From the NCBI GenBank assembly GCA_001779315.1, contig MFJU01000006.1, forward strand, positions 2,612 to 66,611: 64,000 bases of DNA, written 5' to 3'. How positions within the stretch are numbered: position 1 is the stretch's first letter; each line of letters opens with the position of its first letter. The notes under the pieces are model-generated. The model saw nothing but the letters and a program-made list of their open reading frames with translations. It searched no databases and was not told where the DNA came from. The position numbers and the translations under genes were made by a program. Below are positions 2,452-62,743 of the stretch, in pieces. This DNA is from Candidatus Gottesmanbacteria bacterium RIFCSPLOWO2_01_FULL_42_22 (lineage in GTDB: Bacteria > Patescibacteriota > Microgenomatia > 2-02-FULL-39-11).

Positions 2452-2744
2452 ATCTGATTCACCTGCGAGGACTCATGGCTTCCGCTTCGCTCCAGCCTGC
2501 CACCTCCCAGGTGTTTAACTTTTATTCCTGGATTGGATATAAGTTTCAAATCAATCAACAGGCGGTTGAACCAGTCTCCGAGGGTGACTATCAAAGGAAA
2601 TGACAAAGCGGCTTCGCTGGTAAGCCAAGCCTGGAAACTGCCGCAGGAAGCGCAATTACGGGACAGGGAAAAAATAATGAAATCAAGAAAAACGGTCAGG
2701 GGCAATACGAATAAAAATAACATTATTTTTTTAAGTTTGGACAT
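2448..2744 (-). CDS. Hypothetical small membrane protein
   Basis: 98-aa ORF with a hydrophobic N-terminus, overlapping the nadD start by 4 nt; no recognisable motif. Confidence 0.3.
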   Translation of the reverse strand: MSKLKKIMLFLFVLPLTVFLDFIIFSLSRNCASCGSFQAWLTSEAALSFPLIVTLGDWFNRLLIDLKLISNPGIKVKHLGGGRLERSGSHESSQVNQI

Positions 2745-2785
2745 AAAGCAAGTTTAATTATTCATTTTTAATTATACAAGTCTGT

Positions 2786-2878
2786 ACGAAATAGGACTCA
2801 CCCGAAATTTTTCGTGCTCGGATCCCTTCCCCTTCGGGGCGGGGTCCGCCTGCGCGCGAAAAATTTGGGTTCATCCTA
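2786..2878. repeat. GC-rich structured inverted-repeat element (long imperfect ~25-bp stem enclosing a CCCC-UUCG-GGG tetraloop hairpin)
   Basis: aataggactcacccgaaatttttcg ... cgaaaaatttgggttcatcctatt is an imperfect inverted repeat around tgctcggatcccttccccttcggggcggggtccgcctgcgcg; a strongly GC-rich island in an AT-rich genome, lying between two co-directional minus-strand genes. Confidence 0.5.
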
Positions 2879-4094
2879 TTAGTGCAAAAGCGCTGAATAT
2901 TACAAACAGGAGCTGTCCCTGCTGAAGGGTAAGAGGATAGTGGTCAAAAAACCCCAAAAGTAAAATCAGTGTAAATGGCAGAATTCTTTCATTTGGCTTT
3001 TTACGGTAAGCGTAAGCCAGATGGAAAAGCAGATATAAAAAGCCTGTCAATCCGAGGATGCCCAATTCTCCGGCCACAAATAAATAGATATTGTGAACCG
3101 GCTGCAGCAAATGTAAACCGTTTTTGACTGCTGTGCTTCCGTATTGGTAAATCAGGGAATTATTTAAACCTGTCCCGAAGGCGGGATGTTTTTGAAAATG
3201 GGACCAGAATGATTCCGCAAGCTCCCTTCTTTCTGTCAGGCTTTTTGAGGCAAAGGGCATAAACGGGATAAGGATGGAAAGCAGTAAAATCAGGAAAAAA
3301 ATAATTGCTGGCTGTTTAAGCGGTTTTATAAAAATAAATAGCAAACCGCTTAAAAAAACCAGCCAGGCCCCCAGGGAAAAAGTTAAGAATAATGCCGGCA
3401 AACCCGCTAAAATGCTTAAAAATAGAAAAGTCCGGAATTTATTAAAAACAGAAGACTTTATCAGTAAATAAATCATCAGGGATAAAATAACAGCCAAAAA
3501 ACCGCCAAGAACATTCGGGTGGGGGAAAGTGGCATAAGGCCGCAATAAAAGCCTGCCGGAAACTGATACGGCAGCAATGCCGAAAGTTGAGGCATAAAAT
3601 GTCCGTTCCCCCAGATACCACATTATCCCCCCGGCCGACCGCTGGATAATAAATTGAGCGATCGCTAAAAAGGAGGAATAAATGACCGGAATGCTAAAAA
3701 AAAGGACTGTTTTATTAAATGAGGGCTTAAGAGTGATGATCGACCAAAAAAGCAGTATAAATTCGCTAATTTTAAAAAGAGAATAAAAAGCCGCCGGTTT
3801 ATTGACGGAGACAAAAAGCGCTGAATGTAATAAATAGAGAAAGGCAAGAAAAATTAGGAAAAGATTTTTCCATCCGAGCCTGGAGAGAAATCTTAAGGGC
3901 TTAGCCAGGATGATAAGGGTCCAAATTAAAAGATCGGTTAAATATAAGGTCGGAGTTAAATAATCGCTCCCGATGCCGGCAATCTGAGTAAAAGAGGCGG
4001 GAAAATGAAAAGCCAACTGGACAGGCAGAAGAATAATTAAAAAATAATAAAAAAGGAGGGCGGGGTAATTTCGGTTCCGTGAGGGAACGGCCAT
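2871..4094 (-). CDS. Polytopic membrane protein, O-antigen ligase/polymerase (Wzy_C)-like
   Basis: 407 aa with about 10 predicted TM helices and a large periplasmic loop, the architecture of the WaaL/Wzy family; no motif-level proof. Confidence 0.4.
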   Translation of the reverse strand: MAVPSRNRNYPALLFYYFLIILLPVQLAFHFPASFTQIAGIGSDYLTPTLYLTDLLIWTLIILAKPLRFLSRLGWKNLFLIFLAFLYLLHSALFVSVNKPAAFYSLFKISEFILLFWSIITLKPSFNKTVLFFSIPVIYSSFLAIAQFIIQRSAGGIMWYLGERTFYASTFGIAAVSVSGRLLLRPYATFPHPNVLGGFLAVILSLMIYLLIKSSVFNKFRTFLFLSILAGLPALFLTFSLGAWLVFLSGLLFIFIKPLKQPAIIFFLILLLSILIPFMPFASKSLTERRELAESFWSHFQKHPAFGTGLNNSLIYQYGSTAVKNGLHLLQPVHNIYLFVAGELGILGLTGFLYLLFHLAYAYRKKPNERILPFTLILLLGFFDHYPLTLQQGQLLFVIFSAFALIG

Positions 4095-52332: not shown

Positions 52333-52779
52333 ATGAAATGCCCATTTTGCAATAACAATGATACGGAAGTAGTCGAAACCCGGGATAATGAAGATATGCA
52401 GATAATCAGGCGCCGTCGTGAATGCCCTAAATGTGCTAAGAGATTTACCACATATGAAAGAATTGAACGGGTACCTTTAATTGTAATGAAGAAAGACGGC
52501 CGAAAAGAACAATTTGACAGGGATAAACTTAAAAACGGCATTTTAAAATCATGTGAAAAAACAGTAGTTGGCATTTCGGAAATTGATTCAATAGCTGAAG
52601 AAGTTGAAAAAGAATTACGGAATCAGGATGGAGTTGAAATCGACAGTAAAAAAATAGGACAGCTGGTAGCCCAAAAATTAAAAAAAATTGATAAGATAGC
52701 CTATATCAGATTTGCCTCGGTTTTCCGCAGATTCGTCGATGTTGAGGATTTCGAAAAAGAGTTGCAGAAACTGTTATAA
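52333..52779 (+). CDS. nrdR: Transcriptional repressor NrdR
   Basis: MKCPFCNNNDTEVVETR...CPKC zinc ribbon and ATP-cone; 148 aa. Confidence 0.85.
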   Translation: MKCPFCNNNDTEVVETRDNEDMQIIRRRRECPKCAKRFTTYERIERVPLIVMKKDGRKEQFDRDKLKNGILKSCEKTVVGISEIDSIAEEVEKELRNQDGVEIDSKKIGQLVAQKLKKIDKIAYIRFASVFRRFVDVEDFEKELQKLL

Positions 52780-52818: not shown

Positions 52819-55173
52819 TTGAACATGAAATTAACCGGCATTCGCGAACAGGTTTTTCTGGATAGATATTCTCTCAAAGATGAGAAAGGAAAGCCGGTCG
52901 AAAAAACACCCGAGGCTATGTGGAAAAGAGTGGCGGCAGGTGTAGCCGCGGTTGAAAAAAAGGCAGACAGAAAGTATTGGGAGAAAAAATTCAGCGAAGC
53001 CATGAATGACTTTAAACTGGTACCGGGAGGCCGCATTTTATCAGGAGCAGGCACCGGCTACAAGGTCACTTTTTACAACTGTTTTGTCATACCTTCGCCA
53101 AAAGATTCCCGTGACGGTATTTTGGATACATTGAAACAAATGGTGGAGATAATGGCACGGGGCGGCGGAGTCGGCATCAATCTCTCTTCTCTTAGGCCCA
53201 GGGGAGCCCGTGTCAGAAAAGTCAACGGATTTTCTTCCGGTCCCTGTAATTGGGCGGAACTGTTTTCGGTGGCTACCAAAGACATTATCCAGCAGGGCGG
53301 CACCCGCAGGGGAGCTTTAATGCTCATGTTGTGGGACTGGCATCCTGATATCGAGGAATTCATAACCGTCAAACGGGATCTTTCACGAATCAACGGAGCT
53401 AATCTGTCTGTTTGCGTTTCCGATAAATTTATGGAAGCGGTTAAAAAAGACGCTGACTGGGATCTGGTTTTTCCCGATATCGCAGACCGTGAATACGATA
53501 CGAAATGGGACGGCTATCTGGATAATTGGCTAAAGTTAGGTAAAAAAGTCAAAGTCCATAAAACCGTCAAGGCCAGAAAAATCTGGGACCTGATTTCTGA
53601 AGCAGCCTGGGCTTCGGCTGAACCGGGATTGGTTTTCATGGAACGCTATAACAAGTGGAACAACAACTGGTATTTCAACAACATAAATTGTGTAAATCCA
53701 TGCGGAGAGGAAGGATTACCGGCCTGGGGGGTCTGCAATCTGACATCGATCAATCTGTCGGCTTTAGTGCGGGACGGCAAGATCGATTATCAGGAATTAG
53801 CCGAAATTGCCCAGGTGGGCGTTAGATTCCAGGATGACATTATCGATGCGGATTCCTACGTTTTTCCCCAAATTGAAGAAACGCAAAAAAACGGTGAAAG
53901 GCGGATCGGATTGGGTACGATGGGGTTGGGTGATGCTCTCATCAAGATGAAAATCCGCTACGGATCCCCTCTGTCGATCAGGGTCATCGATAAGATTTAT
54001 TCGACCATCAGAAATGCTGCCTACGAAGCATCAACTGAGATAGCTAAAGAAAAAGGTGCTTTTCCCAAGTTTGAGGCCAAAAAATATTTAAAAGGCTATT
54101 TTATCAAACAATTGCCTGAAGCCATTAAGGCTAAGATTAAAAAATGGGGCATCCGTAACTCTGTTTTGTTACAGCAAGCCCCAACAGGCTCAACTTCCCT
54201 TCTGGCCGGTGTCACCTCAGGGATAGAACCCGTTTACGAGTTTTCCTTCATCAGGCGTGACCGCTTGGGTGAGCACCGCCTGTTTCACCCCCTTTTTGAT
54301 CAATGGAAAAAGGAACATCCCAATGATCCCATCCCTGATTATTTCGTCTCGGCCAATGATCTGATTCCGGACGATCACGTCAAGGTGCAGGCAGCCATCC
54401 AAAAATACGTTGATGCTTCCATTTCCAAAACGGTCAATGCACCCAATAGCCACACAGTTGAAGATGTCCGGAAATTGTACCGGATGGCTTATGAATTAGG
54501 CTGCAAGGGCATAACTTACATGAGGGATGGCAGCCGCCCCGGAGTGTTGGAAAGAGTTACGGATAAAAAAGCGGAAACCTCTGTCACTGCCCCCGACAGC
54601 AATTCTATAATCGGGAACGGCAAACATACGCCGGAAATTACCCCCAGGCCGATGGTGGTCAAAGGAGCTACCTACCAGATTGATACACCGGTCGGGGCTG
54701 CTTTTGTGACCATTAATACCGATATGGCTAATGAACCATTGGAGATATTTATCAATGTCGGTAAAGCCGGTTCAGATGTGACGGCTATGGCTGAAGCTGT
54801 CGGCCGCTTGGCTTCGCTCACATTAAGAATACAGTCAAGTGTACCTGCCTCGGAAAGAGCCAAACAAATATTTAACCAGCTGATCGGTATCGGGGGTTCG
54901 AAATCATTGGGATTTGGGGATAAAAGGGTCAGATCTTTGCCGGATGCGGTGGCCAAAATTCTGGCCATGCATTTTGATTATAAAATTAAAAACGGCAACG
55001 GCCTAACTCATAAAGAAGTAATTGCAGAACAGCAGCCTTTGGCGGTATTAACACAGCAAGCTTTGCCTGTCGAAAAATCAGAATTTGATTTATGTCCTTC
55101 CTGCGGAGAAGCTGCTCTGGCCTATGAAGAAGGCTGTAAAAAATGCTACAGCTGTGGCTATTCCGAATGTTGA
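52819..55173 (+). CDS. nrdJ: Ribonucleotide reductase, class II (adenosylcobalamin-dependent), with C-terminal Zn ribbon
   Basis: Active-site VNPCGEEGLPAWGVCNLTSINL (NPCGE is class II; class I has NLCxE); C-terminus CPSCGEAALAYEEGCKKCYSCG; 784 aa; flanked by nrdR and a cobalamin adenosyltransferase. Confidence 0.75.
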   Translation: MNMKLTGIREQVFLDRYSLKDEKGKPVEKTPEAMWKRVAAGVAAVEKKADRKYWEKKFSEAMNDFKLVPGGRILSGAGTGYKVTFYNCFVIPSPKDSRDGILDTLKQMVEIMARGGGVGINLSSLRPRGARVRKVNGFSSGPCNWAELFSVATKDIIQQGGTRRGALMLMLWDWHPDIEEFITVKRDLSRINGANLSVCVSDKFMEAVKKDADWDLVFPDIADREYDTKWDGYLDNWLKLGKKVKVHKTVKARKIWDLISEAAWASAEPGLVFMERYNKWNNNWYFNNINCVNPCGEEGLPAWGVCNLTSINLSALVRDGKIDYQELAEIAQVGVRFQDDIIDADSYVFPQIEETQKNGERRIGLGTMGLGDALIKMKIRYGSPLSIRVIDKIYSTIRNAAYEASTEIAKEKGAFPKFEAKKYLKGYFIKQLPEAIKAKIKKWGIRNSVLLQQAPTGSTSLLAGVTSGIEPVYEFSFIRRDRLGEHRLFHPLFDQWKKEHPNDPIPDYFVSANDLIPDDHVKVQAAIQKYVDASISKTVNAPNSHTVEDVRKLYRMAYELGCKGITYMRDGSRPGVLERVTDKKAETSVTAPDSNSIIGNGKHTPEITPRPMVVKGATYQIDTPVGAAFVTINTDMANEPLEIFINVGKAGSDVTAMAEAVGRLASLTLRIQSSVPASERAKQIFNQLIGIGGSKSLGFGDKRVRSLPDAVAKILAMHFDYKIKNGNGLTHKEVIAEQQPLAVLTQQALPVEKSEFDLCPSCGEAALAYEEGCKKCYSCGYSEC

Positions 55174-55177
55174 TAAC

Positions 55178-55717
55178 ATGCCTTCAAAAGTCAAAGTCTA
55201 CACCAGAACAGGTGATGCCGGTAAAACATCTCTATACGGCGGAAAAAGAGTCCCTAAAAGCTATTTGAGAGTGGAGGTATACGGAACTATCGATGAACTT
55301 AATTCCGTCATCGGCATTTTATTGTCGGATATGGGCAAAGAAGATAATCTGGCTAATTTTTTTAAGGAAGTCCAATCGGATCTGTTTTCTATAGGAGCCA
55401 ATTTAGCCGGAGATAAAACCGATTTAAATTTATTAACCGGTAGAACTGCCGAAATGGAGAAATTAATTGACGTGATGGATAAAGAGTTGCCTGAACTTAA
55501 AAATTTTATTCTGCCCGGAGGGACACATTTGGCCTCTTTGGCTCATCTGGCCCGTTCCGTCTGCCGCCGGGCTGAAAGAAAAGTCGTTTCATTAACTAAA
55601 ACGGACAGCCGCCTGTTTGCCTACCTGAACAGATTGTCCGATCTTCTTTTTATAACTGCACGCTATTTAAATTGGAAAAATGGTCTGAAAGATACGCTTT
55701 GGCTTAAAAAAAAGTAA
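55178..55717 (+). CDS. PduO-type ATP:cob(I)alamin adenosyltransferase
   Basis: MPSKVKVYTRTGDAGKTSLYGGKRVPKSYLRVEVYGTIDELNS is the PduO/MMAB N-terminal signature. Start set at ATG 55178; the track ORF start at 55085 overlaps nrdJ. Confidence 0.75.
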   Translation: MPSKVKVYTRTGDAGKTSLYGGKRVPKSYLRVEVYGTIDELNSVIGILLSDMGKEDNLANFFKEVQSDLFSIGANLAGDKTDLNLLTGRTAEMEKLIDVMDKELPELKNFILPGGTHLASLAHLARSVCRRAERKVVSLTKTDSRLFAYLNRLSDLLFITARYLNWKNGLKDTLWLKKK

Positions 55718-55724
55718 TAACTTG

Positions 55725-55873
55725 GGAATTTAAGAGGAATTCCGTGTAATTCGGAAACTGTGCCGCAACGGTAAAGTCCGGAACTCTTTTCCAAAGATCA
55801 TCATCCCGAGCAGGAGAATACGGTCAAATTTAGGGGTTAGTATTCCTCTCGGGTTTAACGGGAGGATTTTTTT
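55725..55873 (+). ncRNA. Candidate cobalamin riboswitch with terminator / RBS-sequestering expression platform
   Basis: GAGGAATTCCGTGTAATTCGGAAACTGTGCCGCAACGGTAAAG resembles the Cbl-riboswitch core (E. coli btuB: AGGGAATCCAGTGCGAATCTGGAGCTGACGCGCAGCGGTAAGG). A partial B12-box-like CCCGAGCAGGAGAATACGG follows. The 3' hairpin CCTCTCGGG-TTTAA-CGGGAGG (55845-55865) is followed by ATTTTTTT and contains the GGAGGA Shine-Dalgarno for the ATG at 55874. Confidence 0.5.
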
Positions 55874-55940
55874 ATGAAAGAGTTGCCAAATGTATTTGGC
55901 TTACTCTTTCAAATAGTGAGGAGCGAAGCGACGTACTATT

Positions 55941-58574
55941 ATGGTTGAGCTGGCCATGTCGGTCATGACGGCGCCCGGAATTGCGGGCAGTCCTAATAGT
56001 GTGCCCGACTGTAATTCATATAGCTGTTCCTTAGCCATTAACGCAATTATGGGCATGGAAACAGGACAAGCGGTCAAAGCAGTTAAATCTGATGTTGTTT
56101 CGCAACTCATCGAACATGAATTAAACCGGCCGATAAGCATCGTCGATTTTGGAATCAAAAAAAAAGCCATTACATTCCCTAACGGTCAGGTAATAGAAAA
56201 AGACACACTTTATAATGAAGAATTCGGCAAAACCATACAGGGCGTAACTAATCCGCTAGAAGGGGCAGGTCAAGTCTGGTATAAGACTGACCGTCTTTCC
56301 GACAAAATTGTGGCTGCTGCCGATAATACCTGGCATATTACCGTCAGCCAAGGCAATAGTGAAACTCACCGTTTGGCTGTCTTTCATAAAAAAGAAGATC
56401 AGATCAGGGAATATTTCATTTCAATAGAGGCTTCAGCGGAAACTGTTTTCAGGATAGCCTCGCTATTTCCACCGGAAAGGCAGATAGAGGAATCATCGGA
56501 TACTTTTTTGCCGAATCTATTCAATGGAATCGAAGCCTCATATTCAGGCTGGGAAAAGTCGGAGAGGCGGGAGTTTTTAAAGGACCTGAAAGAAGAATTT
56601 AATTTGGGTGATCAGAAACTTGAAGAAAGAAAAGAGAAAATTAGCCAATTAATCAACAGATTTGTCAGGGAAACATTATCGTCCAACGAAACGGTTGAGG
56701 CAATCGGAGTGATCGGGCAGGCTATAGCGCAATTGGCCGGAGAAGCGAAGTCAATACTCAGACAAATCCCCTACGCTTCTTTACCCCCCCTTACCCGGTT
56801 ACCGCTCGACACCAAACAGACCGAACAATCAGCAGAAAGAAGGTTGGTGCGGGAAAAGGAAAATCCGGGCTTAACCGGCATTATTCTGAATGAGGCCCCG
56901 ATAGTTAAACCGATTTTCCAGAAAATAGCTGCTTTTGAAAATGATGAAATACCCAAGACAGAACCAGTTATAAGTAAAATTGAATTGATGACAGTTAATG
57001 AAGAAACTTCCGAAGGAGAGGAATATTCAGCTGAGGATTCATTTATTGCCGTTATGATTTTGCAGCATATAATGTCGGCGTCTGTTGCTGAAAGTCAAAC
57101 AGAAATTTCAAATGCAGAAATAAGCGATCACTTTGAAGTAATCATTCCTCTCATTCCATCCCTGATCGGTCTGTTGGAAGAAGTGGAAAAAATATCTGAT
57201 GTAAATATTAATACAGATGTAACCGCGGAAAAATCAATAATTGAGTTTCCGGAAAAATCTATAGCCGTATCAGAAGAATCATTACTCGCTGGTTTAATAC
57301 TTCAGCTATTTACTACAGAAGATAATTTTGAACCTGTAACTTCTGAGGATAATAAACAATTATATTTATCTGCTAAACCGGAGAACTGGGAAGCTATGCT
57401 TGATCCGGAAGACACACTAACTGAAAAAAAGTTGGAAATTGTCTCTTTACCCGATGAATTTACGGATAATGCTTATATGGTTAGCCCGGAAGTAGAAGGA
57501 GATTATCTTTCAGATGGTGAAATTTCAGAAATGTCTGTTGATAACATTGAGGTGCCCTTAATTGCCGTTTGGATAATTCATCAGATCGTCTCTATTCCTG
57601 AAGCTGGTTTAAAAGGTAATGCTGCTGAATTATCCGACATTCCACAAGACATCGACTCTAATGGGAATCATCCGGATGATGTCAAGCAGGAAATTGTTTT
57701 ACCTTTAATTCATTCTCTGACAGGCCTGCTGGAAATAACCCATTCAATTCCTGATGCCGTAAATCAGGTATTGGAAGAAATATCTAAAAGGTTCTCAGTC
57801 GGCGAAGTGCTTTTTGCAACCACCGAAGAGCAGGATTTTGTCGAACAAGTTGCCGTTCCCGCAGCAATTATCTTTTTAGGAATAATAGAGAAATTTGTTG
57901 AAATAAATAATGGAAAAACCGTCCAAAATTCAGATTTAGAAACAGTAGAAAAGATCGAAAATCAAAAAGAAAAAATATCAGCTCAATCTGAAAAATTAAT
58001 TGAGGAATTAATATTATTTACAGTGATGAAGCAATTTTTAACTTTTGAAAGTCAGGACTATATGAATTTAAATAAGGAGCATAAAATTAATGAATCCGGT
58101 GAAGAAAAAGTAACTAAAAAAAAAGAAACTGTTTCGAAAGAGATTTCTTTGATTGTGCCTGCTCTGGTTTCTTTTCTGGATAAAATTACCAGTAAAAAAT
58201 TTGAGAATGAATCAGTTGAAGAAATGTCTATTGAGCAGGAAATTGCAGATATTACTGAGAAGAAAGTTAATGATAAATTATTACTGGGAATAATCCGATT
58301 AATTTCAATGGTACTCAGGATTGAAAAAAGAATTGAAATAGTTAAACCTTTCGCACAGCTGATTCAGGAAAAATTACCCAAAGAAATAGAATCACTTCAA
58401 CGCTTAATATTTTTAAAATTAGCCTTAAATTTATTAATTTTAGAGAGGAAAGATCTGCTTACCAGGCAGCAAGGGCATGGTAATGGTAAGCAGAAAAAAA
58501 AGCAGGTTAAATTACCACTGTATGCCTTGATATTTAGTTTTGAGACCCATCTTGAACCTTTGCCAGTTGTGTGA
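55941..58574 (+). CDS. Large acidic hypothetical protein (877 aa) with three ~120-aa internal repeats; first gene after the candidate Cbl riboswitch
   Basis: Repeated segments IIPLIPSLIGLLEEVEKISDV / IVLPLIHSLTGLLEITHSIPDAV / LIVPALVSFLDKITSKKFENES, each preceded by an amphipathic hydrophobic helix (AVMILQHIMSASVAESQ / IAVWIIHQIVSIPEAG / LIEELILFTVMKQFL). No signal peptide or known domain recognised. The exact start is uncertain: a 24-aa uORF at 55874-55948 overlaps the ATG at 55941 (ATGGTTGA). Confidence 0.5.
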   Translation: MVELAMSVMTAPGIAGSPNSVPDCNSYSCSLAINAIMGMETGQAVKAVKSDVVSQLIEHELNRPISIVDFGIKKKAITFPNGQVIEKDTLYNEEFGKTIQGVTNPLEGAGQVWYKTDRLSDKIVAAADNTWHITVSQGNSETHRLAVFHKKEDQIREYFISIEASAETVFRIASLFPPERQIEESSDTFLPNLFNGIEASYSGWEKSERREFLKDLKEEFNLGDQKLEERKEKISQLINRFVRETLSSNETVEAIGVIGQAIAQLAGEAKSILRQIPYASLPPLTRLPLDTKQTEQSAERRLVREKENPGLTGIILNEAPIVKPIFQKIAAFENDEIPKTEPVISKIELMTVNEETSEGEEYSAEDSFIAVMILQHIMSASVAESQTEISNAEISDHFEVIIPLIPSLIGLLEEVEKISDVNINTDVTAEKSIIEFPEKSIAVSEESLLAGLILQLFTTEDNFEPVTSEDNKQLYLSAKPENWEAMLDPEDTLTEKKLEIVSLPDEFTDNAYMVSPEVEGDYLSDGEISEMSVDNIEVPLIAVWIIHQIVSIPEAGLKGNAAELSDIPQDIDSNGNHPDDVKQEIVLPLIHSLTGLLEITHSIPDAVNQVLEEISKRFSVGEVLFATTEEQDFVEQVAVPAAIIFLGIIEKFVEINNGKTVQNSDLETVEKIENQKEKISAQSEKLIEELILFTVMKQFLTFESQDYMNLNKEHKINESGEEKVTKKKETVSKEISLIVPALVSFLDKITSKKFENESVEEMSIEQEIADITEKKVNDKLLLGIIRLISMVLRIEKRIEIVKPFAQLIQEKLPKEIESLQRLIFLKLALNLLILERKDLLTRQQGHGNGKQKKKQVKLPLYALIFSFETHLEPLPVV

Positions 58575-58600
58575 CAGAATAAGATAAAGGAGGCTTAAAT

Positions 58601-59071
58601 ATGCCAGTTTCAAAACGAAAAAACAACCGGAATCTTATTATTCTGGTAATACTTTTACTCTTAGGCTCGGTTTTTTTCGGACAGACTGTTTTTCTGAAAG
58701 AAGATAAAAAAACAGAGGAAAAAGAGACGATTAGCCGCAGCGAAAATACAGTCGATGAACTGATTCAGGAGAGAGAAGCGACAGGAAATAAAATAACGGT
58801 AAATTTCGGCGCAGGCAAAACTTTTGTTAAAGATTTGCAGGCAGCCACACCCTACGAAGCTTTGAAAACTATGGCATCCCAAGAGGGATGGGAAATAAAG
58901 ACAAAGGAATACAAATACGGCTTAATGGTTGAAGGGGTAGGCAATTTGATTAATTCAGATAAGGGTTACTGGACGTATAAAACAAACGGCCAACCTGGTA
59001 AAATAGCTTCTGACAGATATACTCTTAAAAAAGGTGAAACCGTTGAATGGGAGTATGTCCAAGTCGATTAA
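58601..59071 (+). CDS. DUF4430 (transcobalamin-like beta-domain) secreted/membrane-anchored protein, putative cobalamin-binding protein
   Basis: N-terminal signal anchor (LIILVILLLLGSVFFG). The C-terminus YGLMVEGVGNLINSDKGYWTYKTNGQPGKIASDRYTLKKGETVEWEY follows the DUF4430 pattern (G-x-V-x-x-I-x-G...g-YW-x-Y-x-V-N-G...G-x-x-x-Y-x-L-K-x-GD-x-I-x-W-x-Y), which I recall is classified with the C-terminal domain of transcobalamin/intrinsic factor. Confidence 0.5.
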   Translation: MPVSKRKNNRNLIILVILLLLGSVFFGQTVFLKEDKKTEEKETISRSENTVDELIQEREATGNKITVNFGAGKTFVKDLQAATPYEALKTMASQEGWEIKTKEYKYGLMVEGVGNLINSDKGYWTYKTNGQPGKIASDRYTLKKGETVEWEYVQVD

Positions 59072-59076
59072 AAAAA

Positions 59077-59619
59077 ATGTATTCAAAAATTTCCGCGGCC
59101 TTTGGGCTTGTGGCTGCCGGTATTCTTTTCAGAACTGTTTTCCATATCGGCGATAATATTGAAACAATTACCTCCGGCACTTTAGTAGCCGCCGCATATC
59201 TCGGACCGTTTTGGGCGCTGGCTGTTCCTTTGACTTCAATGGCTGTTTCCGACCTGATTTTGGGTAACAGCCTGATTTTTATATTTACCTGGACTGCTTA
59301 TATGATTATTGGTGCAACTGCCTTTCTTTTTTTCAGGAAAAAGAAAAAAGACCGCTTGATTATTCCTTCTATACTGGCAGCCGGAGGAGCTTCCATATTT
59401 TTCTATCTGTGGACAAATTTCGGAGTCTGGTTTTTAGACTTTTACGGCATGTATCCTAAAACTTTGCCTGGATTGGCCGAAGCCTATATCCTGGGCTTGC
59501 CGTTTCTGAAAATGAATCTGTTAGGAAATCTTATTTTTGTGCCTTTGTTTTTCTTTATTGCGCAGATTGTGAGAGCAGAAGCAAAAGAAGAAAATAAAAA
59601 TAAAATTTTTTCCGGGTAA
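59077..59619 (+). CDS. ECF-transporter S-component-like small polytopic membrane protein (CbrT-like candidate)
   Basis: About 180 aa with roughly 6 TM helices and short loops, the size and topology of ECF substrate-capture (S) components; directly downstream of the DUF4430 gene in the riboswitch-led operon. Start set at ATG 59077. Confidence 0.4.
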   Translation: MYSKISAAFGLVAAGILFRTVFHIGDNIETITSGTLVAAAYLGPFWALAVPLTSMAVSDLILGNSLIFIFTWTAYMIIGATAFLFFRKKKKDRLIIPSILAAGGASIFFYLWTNFGVWFLDFYGMYPKTLPGLAEAYILGLPFLKMNLLGNLIFVPLFFFIAQIVRAEAKEENKNKIFSG

Positions 59620-59626
59620 GCCAATC

Positions 59627-60085
59627 ATGCCTGCCGTAAATAACCAGCATCATAATGGCCAGACTTCCTCAACCGGGAATAAGCCAAAAAAAACTCCACC
59701 GGCGGTAAGTATTACTGCCATAGGAGGTAAAGAAGCTGAAAAAGTCACTCAGGAAGCGAGTCTAAAAATAGAGGAAATTTCCTCGGAGACAGTTTTGGCT
59801 CCTGAAGTGGAAACGGCCGGTGTTACTAAAATCGGGGATACGATCGAATTTCCGCCTGATATTACTGATTTAACCGGCGGTCAAAGTGTAAGTACTTTAC
59901 CTTCACAGACGTCATCCCAAACAGCCGTACCTATGCCCATTAGTGACGACTTGATATATTCCGGAAGTCAGAAATCAATTACCAATACCATCAAATGGCT
60001 GGCAGAGTGGTGCATCAGAAAACTTAAAATGGCCCATCTGGTCCTGAAAAATATTCACGGCAAAATTATCCGGGTCAAAATATAA
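59627..60085 (+). CDS. Hypothetical protein (152 aa), S/T-rich, last gene of the putative B12 operon
   Basis: Clean ORF 8 nt after the preceding stop; no motif. Confidence 0.3.
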   Translation: MPAVNNQHHNGQTSSTGNKPKKTPPAVSITAIGGKEAEKVTQEASLKIEEISSETVLAPEVETAGVTKIGDTIEFPPDITDLTGGQSVSTLPSQTSSQTAVPMPISDDLIYSGSQKSITNTIKWLAEWCIRKLKMAHLVLKNIHGKIIRVKI

Positions 60086-60100
60086 GGAATTAATTTCTAT

Positions 60101-62449
60101 ATGGATATGTATGAGCCAACATTATTATACGATTCTCTCCTGAATCTTGGTTTCACTTTTACTATTCTGATTTTAGTATTATTCGGGCTCGCTCTTTTTA
60201 CCTATTTCATTTTTCTATGGTGGAAGTACCGAAACCGCGAGAAACAGAGTTTGGAATTTGTGCTTTTGCAGATATGCGTACCAAAGGATAATGAGGTAAA
60301 AATTGATGCTGCAGAACAATTTTATTCCTCACTTTCCTCCCTGTCCCACGGCGGCTTTCTCTCTTTCATGAAAGATAAGGACCATATTTCTTTTGAAATC
60401 GTCGGCCGTCCCGGAGATATCCGCTTTTATGTCTCCGTCCATCACCATTTGCGGGATCTTATCGAAAAACAGATTTACGGTATGTACCCGGGAGCGGAGA
60501 TTAAAGAAGTGGATGAATATAATATTTTTGATGAAAAGGGCAAAGTGGCTTTTGCTTCATTTATTTTAAAAGGCTCGGATTATTTGCCGATGAAGACATT
60601 TAAAGATCTGCCGGTTGATCCGATGTCAGCCATCACCTCAAATTTAGGCAAAATGCAGGCCGGTGAGGGAGCGGCAATTCAAATTTTGGTGACTCCTGCC
60701 GCAGGCAAGTGGAAGAGTTCCGGAAAAAGTTATCTTTCAGGAGTGAAAAAAAACGAGGCTAACCCGGAAAAAGCGCATTATAACGTCGACCATAAAATCC
60801 TGGAAACCATAGAAAACAAATTAGCCAAACCGGGTTTCTTAACGACGATCAGAGTAGTTGTTTCCTCAACCACGTTGGAATCCGCCAAGATGCATCTTCA
60901 TAATATCGAATCGGTTTTTGCTCAATTTTCCTCAGACCAAAACCATTTAGGGGGAGCCAAACTCATGTTCAAAAGTTCATTCGTCATCGATTTCATTTAC
61001 CGTTATTTTCCCATCCTTAATTGGCCTTATAAACAGTACAGTGTTTTAACCAGCGAGGAATTGGCGACCCTTTTCCATTTTCCCAATAAAAGTGTGGAAA
61101 CCCCCCACATTCAATGGGTAACTTCCAAAAGGGCACCGGCACCGCCGGAAATTCCCACCTCCGGGCTTTATCTGGGTAAAAGCACTTACCGGGGCATTTC
61201 CAGACCGATCCATATGGATTTGGATGACAGACGCCGCCATGTATATATTATCGGTAAAACGGGGGTAGGCAAATCGGTCCTTTTGAAAGACATGATCCTT
61301 CAGGATATTAAAGAGGGCAAAGGTGTAGCGGCTATCGATCCCCACGGGGATTTAGTTGAGGGAATTTTACCGATGATACCGCCTGAAAGGGCTGAAGATG
61401 TTATCTATTTTGACCCTTCAGATACCGACAGGCCGATGGGGTTGAATATGCTTGAAGCCAAGACTGAAGAGCAAAAACACTATATCGTCTCATCAATCAT
61501 CGGCTTGATGTATAAACTTTACGACCCCCAGAAAACCGGTATTATCGGACCCAGATTTGAACATGCCATCAGAAATGCCATGCTGACAATTATGGTTGAA
61601 CCGGGCGCTTCTTTCGTCGAGGTGGTCAGAGTTTTAACCGATTCAGCTTACGTACAGGAACTGCTGCCGAAAGTCCAGGATCCGATTGTCAGAAGGTATT
61701 GGACAGACCAGATCGCCCAGACATCCGATTTCCATAAATCTGAAGTATTGGATTATATCGTTTCCAAATTCGGCCGTTTCGTCACCAACAAACTGATGCG
61801 TAATATCATCGGACAAAGTAAAAGCGCCTTTGATTTCCGCAAAGTTATGGATGAAGGTAAGATTCTTCTGGTTAATCTGGCCAAAGGAAAATTAGGCGAG
61901 GAGAATTCATCCTTTTTGGGATTGATAATGGTGCCGAAGATATTGGTTGCGGCCATGAGCCGGGTGGATACACCGGAAGAGCAGCGCCGGGATTTTTTCC
62001 TTTATGTTGACGAATTTCAGAATTTCGCCACACCCGATTTCGCCCAGATTCTGTCCGAAGCCAGGAAATTCCGCCTTAATCTTTGCGTGGCCAACCAGTT
62101 TATCGGCCAGATGGAAGAAGAAGTAAAGAATGCTGTTTTCGGCAATGTCGGCACACTGGTGACCTTCCGGGTGGGAGTGACTGATGCCAATTATCTCCAG
62201 CATTGGTTTACACCTGTTTTCAATGAGAACGACCTGATCAACGTCGACGTCTATAATGCCTATATCAATACCATTATCAGCAATAAACCGGTACCGCCTT
62301 TCTCGGTTGATTTGCGCAAAGATATGGCTGAGTTTAAAAAGCTGGAAAACAAGCAGGTAGCCAAAGCCATTCTGCAACTTTCGCGTCTCAAATACGGCCG
62401 ACCCCGGGAACTGGTCGAAGCCGAAATCTCCCAACGGGCTAAACTCTAA
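60101..62449 (+). CDS. VirD4/TraG-like type IV coupling protein (HerA/FtsK-superfamily ATPase with N-terminal TM anchor)
   Basis: N-terminal TM helices (ILILVLFGLALFTYFIFLWW); Walker A YIIGKTGVGKSVLLKDM; Walker B DFFLYVDEFQNFA; 782 aa. Confidence 0.55.
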   Translation: MDMYEPTLLYDSLLNLGFTFTILILVLFGLALFTYFIFLWWKYRNREKQSLEFVLLQICVPKDNEVKIDAAEQFYSSLSSLSHGGFLSFMKDKDHISFEIVGRPGDIRFYVSVHHHLRDLIEKQIYGMYPGAEIKEVDEYNIFDEKGKVAFASFILKGSDYLPMKTFKDLPVDPMSAITSNLGKMQAGEGAAIQILVTPAAGKWKSSGKSYLSGVKKNEANPEKAHYNVDHKILETIENKLAKPGFLTTIRVVVSSTTLESAKMHLHNIESVFAQFSSDQNHLGGAKLMFKSSFVIDFIYRYFPILNWPYKQYSVLTSEELATLFHFPNKSVETPHIQWVTSKRAPAPPEIPTSGLYLGKSTYRGISRPIHMDLDDRRRHVYIIGKTGVGKSVLLKDMILQDIKEGKGVAAIDPHGDLVEGILPMIPPERAEDVIYFDPSDTDRPMGLNMLEAKTEEQKHYIVSSIIGLMYKLYDPQKTGIIGPRFEHAIRNAMLTIMVEPGASFVEVVRVLTDSAYVQELLPKVQDPIVRRYWTDQIAQTSDFHKSEVLDYIVSKFGRFVTNKLMRNIIGQSKSAFDFRKVMDEGKILLVNLAKGKLGEENSSFLGLIMVPKILVAAMSRVDTPEEQRRDFFLYVDEFQNFATPDFAQILSEARKFRLNLCVANQFIGQMEEEVKNAVFGNVGTLVTFRVGVTDANYLQHWFTPVFNENDLINVDVYNAYINTIISNKPVPPFSVDLRKDMAEFKKLENKQVAKAILQLSRLKYGRPRELVEAEISQRAKL

Positions 62450-62499
62450 TCATCTTCTCTTTTATAATTAAATCAGCCTTGATATAATTGCACGTTGAG

Positions 62500-62572
62500 G
62501 GGCCAGTAGCTCAGTGGTTAGAGCACTACTCTTATAAAGTAGGAGTCGATGGTTCGATCCCATCCTGGCCCA
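62500..62572 (+). tRNA. tRNA-Ile (anticodon UAU)
   Basis: Hand-folded cloverleaf: acceptor GGGCCAG/CTGGCCC, U8, D-arm GCTC-AGTGGTTA-GAGC, anticodon stem CTACT/AGTAG with loop CTTATAA (U33, anticodon TAT, A37), T-arm GATGG-TTCGATC-CCATC, discriminator A73; 3' CC partly encoded. Confidence 0.75.
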
Positions 62573-62743
62573 CCCTTCTTCGCTAAAGCTTCGCAGGGCA
62601 GGCGGAAATGGATTTTCCGGCGAATCGGGAATGGTGCTACTTCTTTGATTTTTTGGAAGCGAGATACATAAAAGCAATTATCACACCTATAAGTGATAAT
62701 CCAATTAAAAACAGAGCCCAAAAGATCGTAACATTATCAACAG

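Follow-up and report, generated by a model that had tools for sequence, protein, structure and literature searches.

A probable corrinoid salvage locus with a short cobalamin riboswitch, a CbrS/CbrT-like gene pair and a large orphan gene in a Gottesmanbacteria-like bacterium

We analysed a stretch of 64,000 nucleotides (nt) from Candidatus Gottesmanbacteria bacterium RIFCSPLOWO2_01_FULL_42_22 (contig MFJU01000006.1), called the window below, to which all coordinates refer. Here, we describe a single directon of this window, all of it on the + strand, in which the genes for a cobalamin (B12)-dependent ribonucleotide reductase and a B12 adenosyltransferase are followed by a cobalamin riboswitch and then by genes for a large orphan protein, a DUF4430 protein and a DUF6580 membrane protein. 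The order is nrdR-nrdJ-pduO, riboswitch, then the genes for a protein of 877 amino acids (aa), DUF4430 and DUF6580, with those for a 152-aa protein and an ATPase at the end. Joining regulation and uptake, we read this as a corrinoid salvage locus of a Gottesmanbacteria-like member of the candidate phyla radiation (CPR, or Patescibacteria), with a probability that we put at roughly 0.7.

The directon opens with nrdR (52333-52779), which encodes a repressor of ribonucleotide reductase genes (PF22811, 70.9 bits; ATP-cone, 70.6 bits). It continues with nrdJ (52819-55173), encoding the adenosylcobalamin (AdoCbl)-dependent ribonucleotide reductase, the B12 consumer of the locus (TIGR02504 NrdJ_Z, 571 bits for a cut-off of 400; PF02867, 425 bits), and with the gene for a PduO-type cob(I)alamin adenosyltransferase (55085-55717; PF01923, 189 bits; TIGR00636, 184 bits). 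The latter open reading frame (ORF) is listed from the TTG at 55085, and its translation favours the ATG at 55178 as the likely start. An earlier reading of this DNA, made from the sequence alone, had placed nrdJ and an adenosyltransferase immediately upstream of a riboswitch, and four co-directional genes behind it. Both arrangements are borne out, the former by the TIGR02504 and PF01923 scores and the latter by the ORFs themselves, which are tightly spaced.

The stop codon of pduO lies 3 nt ahead of the riboswitch aptamer, at 55721-55795. A scan of the whole window with Rfam (cmscan) assigned it to the AdoCbl-II class, over the full length of the model (RF01689, 45.5 bits for a gathering score of 36.5, E = 9.5e-8). 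The scan found two RNAs in the window, this riboswitch and a tRNA, and nothing that reached the gathering score of RF00174 (31.5 bits). The sequence-only reading had proposed a cobalamin riboswitch at this place: the aptamer is real, but its class is AdoCbl-II, and the classical RF00174 assignment is ruled out. Further on, a hairpin made of TCCTCTCG and CGGGAGGA (55844-55866) is followed by seven T (55867-55873). Together they form a terminator-like hairpin with a U7 run (55844-55873), identified by folding and by a terminator scan, which is the strongest terminator-like site within 52-63 kb and has a folding energy of -13.0 kcal/mol (z -3.8). The ribosome-binding site GGGAGGA makes up its 3' arm, so that the hairpin and U-run do sequester this site, as had been claimed. 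Between aptamer and terminator stands an 11-mer, CCCGAGCAGGA (55805-55815), of which exact copies occur 3' of aptamer cores in relatives and which would be the regulatory strand of the switch. It is the 5' arm of a predicted antiterminator hairpin (55805-55853; -16.9 kcal/mol, z -2.8), in which CCCGAG.AGGA pairs with TCCTCTCGGG. Folding predicts that the antiterminator and the terminator are mutually exclusive.

The first ATG past the GGGAGGA site, 7 nt on at 55874, starts merely a 24-codon ORF, MKELPNVFGLLFQIVRSEATYYYG (55874-55948), and not the 877-aa gene. The TGA of this short ORF overlaps the ATG of the large one at 55941 (ATGgtTGA). In the window, the translation of the 877-aa gene is probably coupled to this 24-codon ORF. 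The short ORF is made by a 66-nt insert carried by the window and by a 92%-identical relative (L001; related loci are cited by such numbers), where the ORF is identical, and is missing from L014, L015 and L085. In these and other orthologous loci the hairpin is directly followed by the large ORF, starting with M-[VI]-E-A. Since orthologs without the upstream ORF keep this start, we rejected the idea that the invariant Glu3 is a mere by-product of the overlapping upstream stop.

To compare the locus with its relatives, we scanned one genome per species with a DUF6580 profile, which gave 108 relatives, of which 80 loci were kept (81 with the window). The 11-mer CCCGAGCAGGA has exact copies in 24 related loci besides the window, a few to a few dozen nt 3' of the aptamer core, a count that includes one chance match inside an actinobacterial coding region (L061). 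Gottesman-, Dojka- and Saccharibacteria all keep it unchanged on the 3' side of the aptamer. In L085 it is aligned with the 3' hairpin of the RF01482 model, in the region of the loop, and in L085 and L019 it carries an AGGA(G) ribosome-binding site directly before an ATG. Many of the related aptamers fall below the Rfam gathering thresholds because of inserted hairpins. A pairing of the 11-mer with the 5' strand of P1, as an alternative to the usual one, was rejected: possible in the window, it fails in L014 and L015. The riboswitches of these loci resemble the class II (AdoCbl-II or 'AdoCbl-variant') cobalamin riboswitches, among which env8 is said to have been placed by Johnson et al. in 2012, in having a short aptamer that lacks the peripheral extension and a control exerted via an element on the 3' side, which contains the ribosome-binding site or governs it. 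They differ from them in the invariant CCCGAGCAGGA strand and in the terminator hairpin that many CPR members, the window included, have added. Judged from these sequence features, the locus is probably controlled by a CPR-specific subclass of short cobalamin riboswitch.

How might this switch work? In solved cobalamin riboswitches the loop of a 3' hairpin (L13) makes a ligand-dependent kissing loop. By analogy, at low B12 the 11-mer would pair with TCCTCTCGGG to form the antiterminator, transcription would proceed with GGGAGGA free, and the genes would be on. With B12 bound, the aptamer would capture the 11-mer, as happens with the L13 loop of characterised cobalamin riboswitches; the terminator would then form, transcription would halt, the ribosome-binding site would be buried and the genes would be off. 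Since the aptamer abuts the stop codon of pduO, there is no space for a promoter of its own, and the switch would thus be an internal attenuator acting on read-through transcripts. NrdJ, the consumer, and PduO, the activating enzyme, would escape it, and the uptake genes would be made only under B12 scarcity.

The DUF4430 protein (58601-59071) matches PF14478 over its residues 95-153 (35.6 bits for a cut-off of 23.8). Its N-terminus is a basic and hydrophobic anchor; among Actinobacteria and in several CPR lineages, the orthologs show a lipobox-like L-x-G-C there instead. The protein is thus probably membrane-tethered and extracytoplasmic, and would be CbrS-like. A profile of 47 orthologs, compared with PDB, matched the isolated beta domain of transcobalamin-2 (5no0_A, E = 8.1e-7), haptocorrin (4kki_A, E = 9e-7), 2bb5 (about 1e-5) and intrinsic factor (2pmv and 3kq4, about 1e-5). 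Both the DUF4430 assignment and the proposed kinship with the beta domain of transcobalamin and intrinsic factor are therefore upheld, the first above the gathering cut-off and the second with family-profile E-values of 8e-7 to 1e-5. The likeness to the vertebrate carriers is a profile-level homology, and the beta domain of transcobalamin has been crystallised alone (5NO0). Yet, the bacterial protein is a beta domain only, on a membrane tether, whereas in the vertebrate carriers an alpha6/alpha6 barrel completes the B12 pocket.

The DUF6580 membrane protein (59047-59619), of about 180 aa, more likely starts at the conserved ATG at 59077 than at 59047. It scores 103.9 bits with PF20221, and its predicted structure has the six-helix fold of the S-components of energy-coupling factor (ECF) transporters. 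A profile of 27 DUF6580 sequences has one match only in PDB, to CbrT of ECF-CbrT (6fnp_A), which is marginal (E = 1.1e-3), and a CbrT fragment scores as PF12822, not as DUF6580. The protein had been described as an ECF S-component-like permease. This holds for the fold and for a distant kinship with CbrT, but the score with PF12822 (ECF_trnsprt) is 18.2 bits, below the cut-off of 30.7. By its predicted fold DUF6580 would thus be an ECF S-component and a distant relative of CbrT, whose membership of the CbrT family is marginal by sequence. In the 27-sequence alignment the invariant residues include R19, N27, E29, T32, D59, G63, N64 and the motifs FTW and LWTNFGVW, among others, and none is a Cys or a His. 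In this DUF6580 differs from BtuM (PDB 8OVV/6FFV), in which a conserved cysteine ligates cobalt, and no sequence match was found between the two.

Among the best 80 of the 108 relatives, the closest by DUF6580 is Candidatus Gottesmanbacteria GW2011_GWA2_43_14 (66% identity). The others include Kerfeld-, Dojka-, Woese- and Saccharibacteria, Iainarchaeum (DPANN), a metagenome-assembled genome of Pirellulales and many Promicromonosporaceae. DUF4430 is encoded immediately upstream of DUF6580, in the same direction, in 72 of the 81 loci; of all 81, 27 have nrdJ within 4 kb and 14 have pduO. Cobalamin-clan riboswitches stand directly before DUF4430 in L011, L018 (Pirellulales), L019, L020, L024 and L044; they belong to two or three Rfam families, and some relatives score as RF00174. 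The 11-mer flags further copies of the switch in L022, L030, L032, L036, L039, L049, L054 and L063. The layout of the window, with an aptamer in the leader of the DUF4430 and DUF6580 genes and a predicted terminator and antiterminator, thus recurs in relatives, and so does, widely, the association with nrdJ, pduO and B12 riboswitches, a co-occurrence that had been proposed as a check. In the cultured Promicromonosporaceae (Cellulosimicrobium, Isoptericola, Oerskovia and Promicromonospora) a gene for a DUF4430 lipoprotein is followed by one for DUF6580. These actinobacteria (L033, L041-L043, L045-L047, L050-L052, L055, L056 and others) would be tractable hosts for transporter tests.

The gene set has a counterpart in lactobacilli. 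In L. delbrueckii, CbrT sits in a nrdJ-cbrS-cbrT-pduO cluster (Santos et al. 2018, PMC5997447), and the gene of the B12-dependent reductase of L. rhamnosus, rtpR, has a DUF4430 gene as its neighbour (PMC9963975). The Lactobacillus cluster and the window share a B12-dependent ribonucleotide reductase, PduO, a small S-component with its fold and a companion gene. In view of the L. rhamnosus neighbourhood, CbrS of L. delbrueckii would probably be a DUF4430 protein. A prediction concerning the ECF-CbrT/nrdJ-cbrS-cbrT-pduO system of Lactobacillus delbrueckii was reportedly made by Rodionov in 2009. Since the arrangement nrdJ-pduO-[...]-DUF4430-DUF6580 matches nrdJ-cbrS-cbrT-pduO, the locus looks like a divergent edition of the known CbrS/CbrT-type salvage module. 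Hence, the suggestion of a novel B12-capture system has to be abandoned for the core, which corresponds to a known cluster (PMC5997447). There are also differences: the window's DUF6580 belongs to a separate Pfam family (PF20221, CbrT being PF12822), a riboswitch lies inside the cluster, no ECF module was found in the window or co-directionally within 4 kb in the 80 loci, and nothing in the Lactobacillus cluster corresponds to the 877-aa protein. Within the literature that we searched, no paper mentions DUF6580 and none brings together Patescibacteria, cobalamin and riboswitches.

Homology, fold and context suggest how uptake could proceed. Anchored outside the membrane, the DUF4430 protein would bind a corrinoid via its transcobalamin-beta-like domain and hand it to DUF6580. 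The latter would carry it across the membrane, either with an ECF module encoded elsewhere, like CbrT, or alone, like BtuM. PduO would then adenosylate the imported cofactor for NrdJ. ECF modules shared among S-components are usually encoded elsewhere in the genome. BtuM is an S-component-like protein that imports B12 alone (PMC6072759). If DUF6580 works without an ECF module, it would represent the second family of solitary B12 importers after BtuM.

Several observations weigh against the reading of the locus as a B12-regulated uptake system. The antiterminator model draws on folding predictions and on the analogy with the kissing loop, and aptamer nucleotides pairing with the 11-mer were sought and none identified. 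No ORF of the window has both a Walker A and an ATP-binding cassette (ABC) signature motif. This is in line with the description of the operon as devoid of a canonical ABC or ECF energising module. Among the 80 loci, 3 have an ABC ATPase within 4 kb, always on the opposite strand, and none has a co-directional ECF module within this distance. In E. coli solitary CbrT is inactive, and B12 transport requires the ECF module (PMC5997447). No riboswitch was seen within 4 kb of the actinobacterial DUF4430-DUF6580 pairs. Finally, three closely related loci of Gottesmanbacteria (L006-L008) have the order nrdR-nrdJ-pduO-DUF4430-DUF6580-152aa-ATPase, in which pduO and DUF4430 are about 70-120 nt apart. 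They lack the large ORF, and no riboswitch was detected in them (in L006 and L007 even at relaxed thresholds), so neither element is essential to the module.

One might also speculate that DUF6580 moves another substrate and that the DUF4430 protein binds something other than a corrinoid, the riboswitch then indicating a regulatory coupling and not the identity of the substrate. Proteins with the S-component fold differ widely in the vitamins that they carry, the tie in sequence between DUF6580 and CbrT is weak (E = 1.1e-3), and a DUF4430 protein has been deposited in PDB as a 'putative metal binding protein' (3u7z). But this is at odds with the B12 specificity of CbrT, the sole PDB sequence match of DUF6580, and with the homology that links DUF4430 to the domain with which three B12 carriers of vertebrates bind the vitamin. 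It also leaves aside that the neighbours are a B12-dependent NrdJ and a B12 adenosyltransferase, and that B12 riboswitches of two or three classes control the pair in several phyla. We therefore hold another substrate to be highly improbable.

Corrinoid salvage by the DUF4430-DUF6580 pair leaves the largest gene behind the switch to be accounted for. The 877-aa ORF (55941-58574), delimited by ORF and ortholog comparison, has orthologs that are 92% and about 72% identical and, on this sequence conservation, is a real gene. As first described, the protein is acidic (150 D+E for 89 K+R) and without known domains: searches for Pfam, NCBIfam, PHROG and PADLOC families and for PDB matches in sequence or fold were all blank, and ten relatives of the protein also have no Pfam family. 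The three internal repeats attributed to it were partly recovered, since one short motif does occur three times, but the repeat unit of about 65 aa is present only twice (residues 356-420 and 531-605, z 7.3). Another short motif occurs twice, and there are extra copies of the first motif of the unit. Searching 1.8 billion representatives exhaustively with HMMER, we added six more distant relatives, which match only residues ~13-300. With a profile of this N-terminal domain, we found the family, which we call family 1, in 15 fetched loci besides the window, i.e. in 16 places, all of them at this locus. It stands between pduO and DUF4430 in 11 of the 15 loci and after DUF6580 in L020; in L087 there is no DUF4430-DUF6580 pair, and the contigs of L002 and L084 stop short of any pduO.

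The 877-aa protein has three parts. The N-terminal domain, of about 280 aa, is conserved and modelled by AF2 as alpha/beta plus helical, with a predicted local distance difference test (pLDDT) of 72 and a predicted template modelling score (pTM) of 0.72. The middle carries a net charge of -57 over residues 300-800, short hydrophobic helix motifs and the repeats. The C-terminus is marked by a helix of hydrophobic residues, a run of lysines and an FPxxG[IV]IYxY-like motif that is conserved. A transmembrane segment was considered for the best 19-residue window, which scores 1.95; as this window contains charged residues, we read it as an amphipathic helix instead. A likeness of the N-terminus to the Fe-S domain of RnfB (9eri_B) was discarded (E = 2.2, cysteines not conserved), as was the idea of a papain- or C39-like peptidase (Cys25 ... 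His), for which there was no family or fold support. Around 56900-57150 of the window (residues ~330-400), a 92%-identical strain (P0002) has a different repeat unit. In L002 (1-153) the frame is broken between the N-terminal 50 residues and the rest of the large ORF. The repeat swap and this frame break point to rapid repeat-mediated change or to gene decay.

The large ORF is immediately preceded by a match to the cobalamin riboswitch clan in at least ten loci. The score exceeds the gathering score in the window (45.5 bits, RF01689), in L015 (37.6 bits), in L087 (35.0 bits, RF00174), where no transporter genes follow, and in L004 (32.8 bits, RF00174). It is below the gathering score in L085 (40.2 bits, RF01482), L086 (34.5 bits), L001 (31.6 bits), L009 (28.9 bits), L014 (26.0 bits) and L083 (24.7 bits). 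We then scanned metagenome contigs, without bias as to the genes, for an aptamer core followed 25-55 nt on by the 11-mer. This gave at least 120 matches, and for 107 of the matches listed we could tell which ORF of 100 aa or more comes first downstream. Among these 107, the first ORF encodes DUF4430 in 39, DUF6580 in 6, PduO in 3, family 1 in 3, a family-1-like protein in about 6 and a protein of what we call family 2 in about 34, the remaining ones being singletons or small clusters. Family 2 is thus the second commonest first gene after DUF4430 among the matches listed (L088-L207). Its members are orphans of 300-590 aa that combine a Gly/Ser-rich loop containing a Cys (for instance GGGCAG or SSSCPGG) with a zinc ribbon, CxxC...CxxC, at the C-terminus, as exemplified by L019 (3164-4066), L022 (4711-6263) and L013 (1872-3257, minus strand). 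No Pfam family was found in the orphans behind the riboswitch, and a homology between family 1 and the L013-type orphans was not supported (hhalign probability 1.8%). As far as sequences can tell, orphans are a major part of the regulon of this riboswitch in CPR, and their abundance behind the subclass makes an accidental association of the 877-aa protein less likely.

Two other kinds of large ORF were seen in these comparisons. A second ORF, much larger than the small DUF4430 gene that it follows and of about 470-890 aa in its complete copies, likewise matches the DUF4430 profile at many metagenome loci (L113, L114, L117, L140, L142, L146, L150, L155, L157, L160, L170, L177, L189, L199 and L203); in L199 a single DUF4430 ORF of 634 aa comes first. 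In L011 a 444-aa ORF (2570-3901) between DUF4430 and DUF6580 has DGGF/W repeats and a proline/serine-rich tail. By eye, it seems similar to the alpha-alpha toroid (prenyltransferase-like) repeats found in the alpha domain of transcobalamin.

What could the 877-aa protein do? We read it as an accessory that is specific to this lineage and shares the regulation of the uptake genes, and it might bind or handle the corrinoid via its N-terminal domain. In each of the 13 members of family 1 that were aligned, and in most of the further ones, one N-terminal position has a Cys or a His with an aromatic residue next to it on the C-terminal side, an alternation that would be typical of a ligand of a metal or a corrin. 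Yet, this position lies in a glycine-rich segment predicted to be flexible, where the alignment is divergent and weak. Other points also speak against such a role: residues 1-26 are disordered and of low confidence in the AF2 model, and no signal peptide, transmembrane segment or fold match was found in the protein. From its sequence, a corrinoid-binding or corrinoid-handling 877-aa protein is thus a tentative and rather doubtful proposal. We are similarly hesitant about its extension to the other orphans behind this riboswitch subclass, which together would form an undescribed corrinoid-binding or -processing class of CPR.

Alternatively, the 877-aa protein may be unrelated to B12 chemistry and be a fast-evolving surface, host-interaction or phage-target protein in a variable slot, its regulation by B12 being merely a consequence of where it landed. 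The identity of the N-terminal domain is indeed 13-39% between genomes in which nrdJ and the ATPase are highly conserved, a repeat unit was swapped between 92%-identical strains, the frame is broken in L002, the gene is missing in L006-L008 and placed after DUF6580 in L020, and the protein has no fold or family match. But a mere slot sits uneasily with the finding of family 1 at this locus in 16 of 16 places and of a riboswitch directly ahead in at least 10 loci, including one without transporter genes (L087). Other orphan families behind the subclass, in about 40% of the metagenome matches listed, argue that the orphans are deliberate targets, and there is no signal peptide or transmembrane segment to place the protein at the surface. 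We consider this alternative unlikely, if worth keeping in mind. The sequence-only reading had presented the 877-aa protein as a new component: it is new as a riboswitch-controlled, locus-specific and fast-evolving family, but the core of the capture system that it would join was already known.

The directon continues with the gene of a conserved 152-aa protein (59627-60085) and that of a 782-aa membrane-anchored P-loop ATPase of HerA/FtsK/TraD type (60101-62449), with DUF8128 and DUF87, identified by family profiles (phrog_5156, 310 bits; PADLOC mad8, 60 bits). The syntenic block has a conserved end, a tRNA-Ile(UAU) (62500-62574) found by the Rfam scan. Conserved at 17 genome loci, the 152-aa protein has a C-terminal half of the form ...LPISD...WLA.WC[IL][RK]KL[KQ]KAH..LK..HGKIIRV and is always encoded directly upstream of the ATPase, of which it is an obligate partner. 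It had been put forward as another new component of the B12 system; its pairing with the ATPase, whatever gene precedes the two, lends this no support. The pair is a syntenic neighbour that is probably co-transcribed here, since gaps of 8 and 15 nt precede the two genes and the terminator-like matches downstream on the + strand are weak, none having more than three G-C pairs between 55900 and 62500.

One might nevertheless imagine that the pair belongs to the B12 system, either energising the S-component instead of an ECF module or exporting the large acidic protein, with the basic run and the FPxxG[IV]IYxY C-terminus of the latter as recognition signal. The spacing is tight (8 and 15 nt, with no strong + strand terminator-like site at 55900-62500), the pair comes next at 17 genome loci and at 6 of the metagenome loci listed, the ATPase has an N-terminal membrane anchor and matches coupling-protein families, and the C-terminal motif of family 1 is kept despite its otherwise rapid divergence. 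However, the pair is also present in L006-L008, where the large ORF is absent, and is missing from the DUF4430-DUF6580 loci outside the Gottesmanbacteria-like clade, so that the linkage is explained by a gene order inherited in common. Moreover, the ATPase shows the conservation of a housekeeping gene (1210-1776 bits across relatives), and we know of no precedent for a HerA/FtsK-type ATPase driving an S-component. All this makes an involvement of the pair in B12 uptake improbable. As to other elements around DUF6580, matches to group I introns (RF00028) lie 1-2 kb downstream of it in two unrelated CPR loci (L019:4142-4328, 67.8 bits; L040:6310-6530, 56.7 bits).

Overall, the initial observation is confirmed and its interpretation holds in part, the novelty of the core and the role of the 152-aa protein having been set aside. 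What is new here is the 877-aa protein, a riboswitch-controlled and locus-specific family; the core is a variant of the CbrS/CbrT-type module. CPR bacteria are abundant, tiny, mostly uncultured and thought to rely on other cells for cofactors, and many of them depend on a B12-dependent ribonucleotide reductase for their DNA precursors. The literature searched contained no description of how they acquire B12. The locus offers a concrete route of uptake, with DUF4430 as a candidate binder and DUF6580 as a candidate S-component, and the pair is also found in DPANN archaea, Pirellulales and Promicromonosporaceae. If the orphans do handle corrinoids, they might trap them by ligating the cobalt, act as chaperones or enzymatically strip off the upper ligand, feeding PduO and NrdJ, and might replace CblC-type processing or the ECF module, for neither of which a gene was found here. 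Orphans placed directly under a B12 riboswitch may thus be, in environmental CPR, the likeliest place for undiscovered B12 biology.

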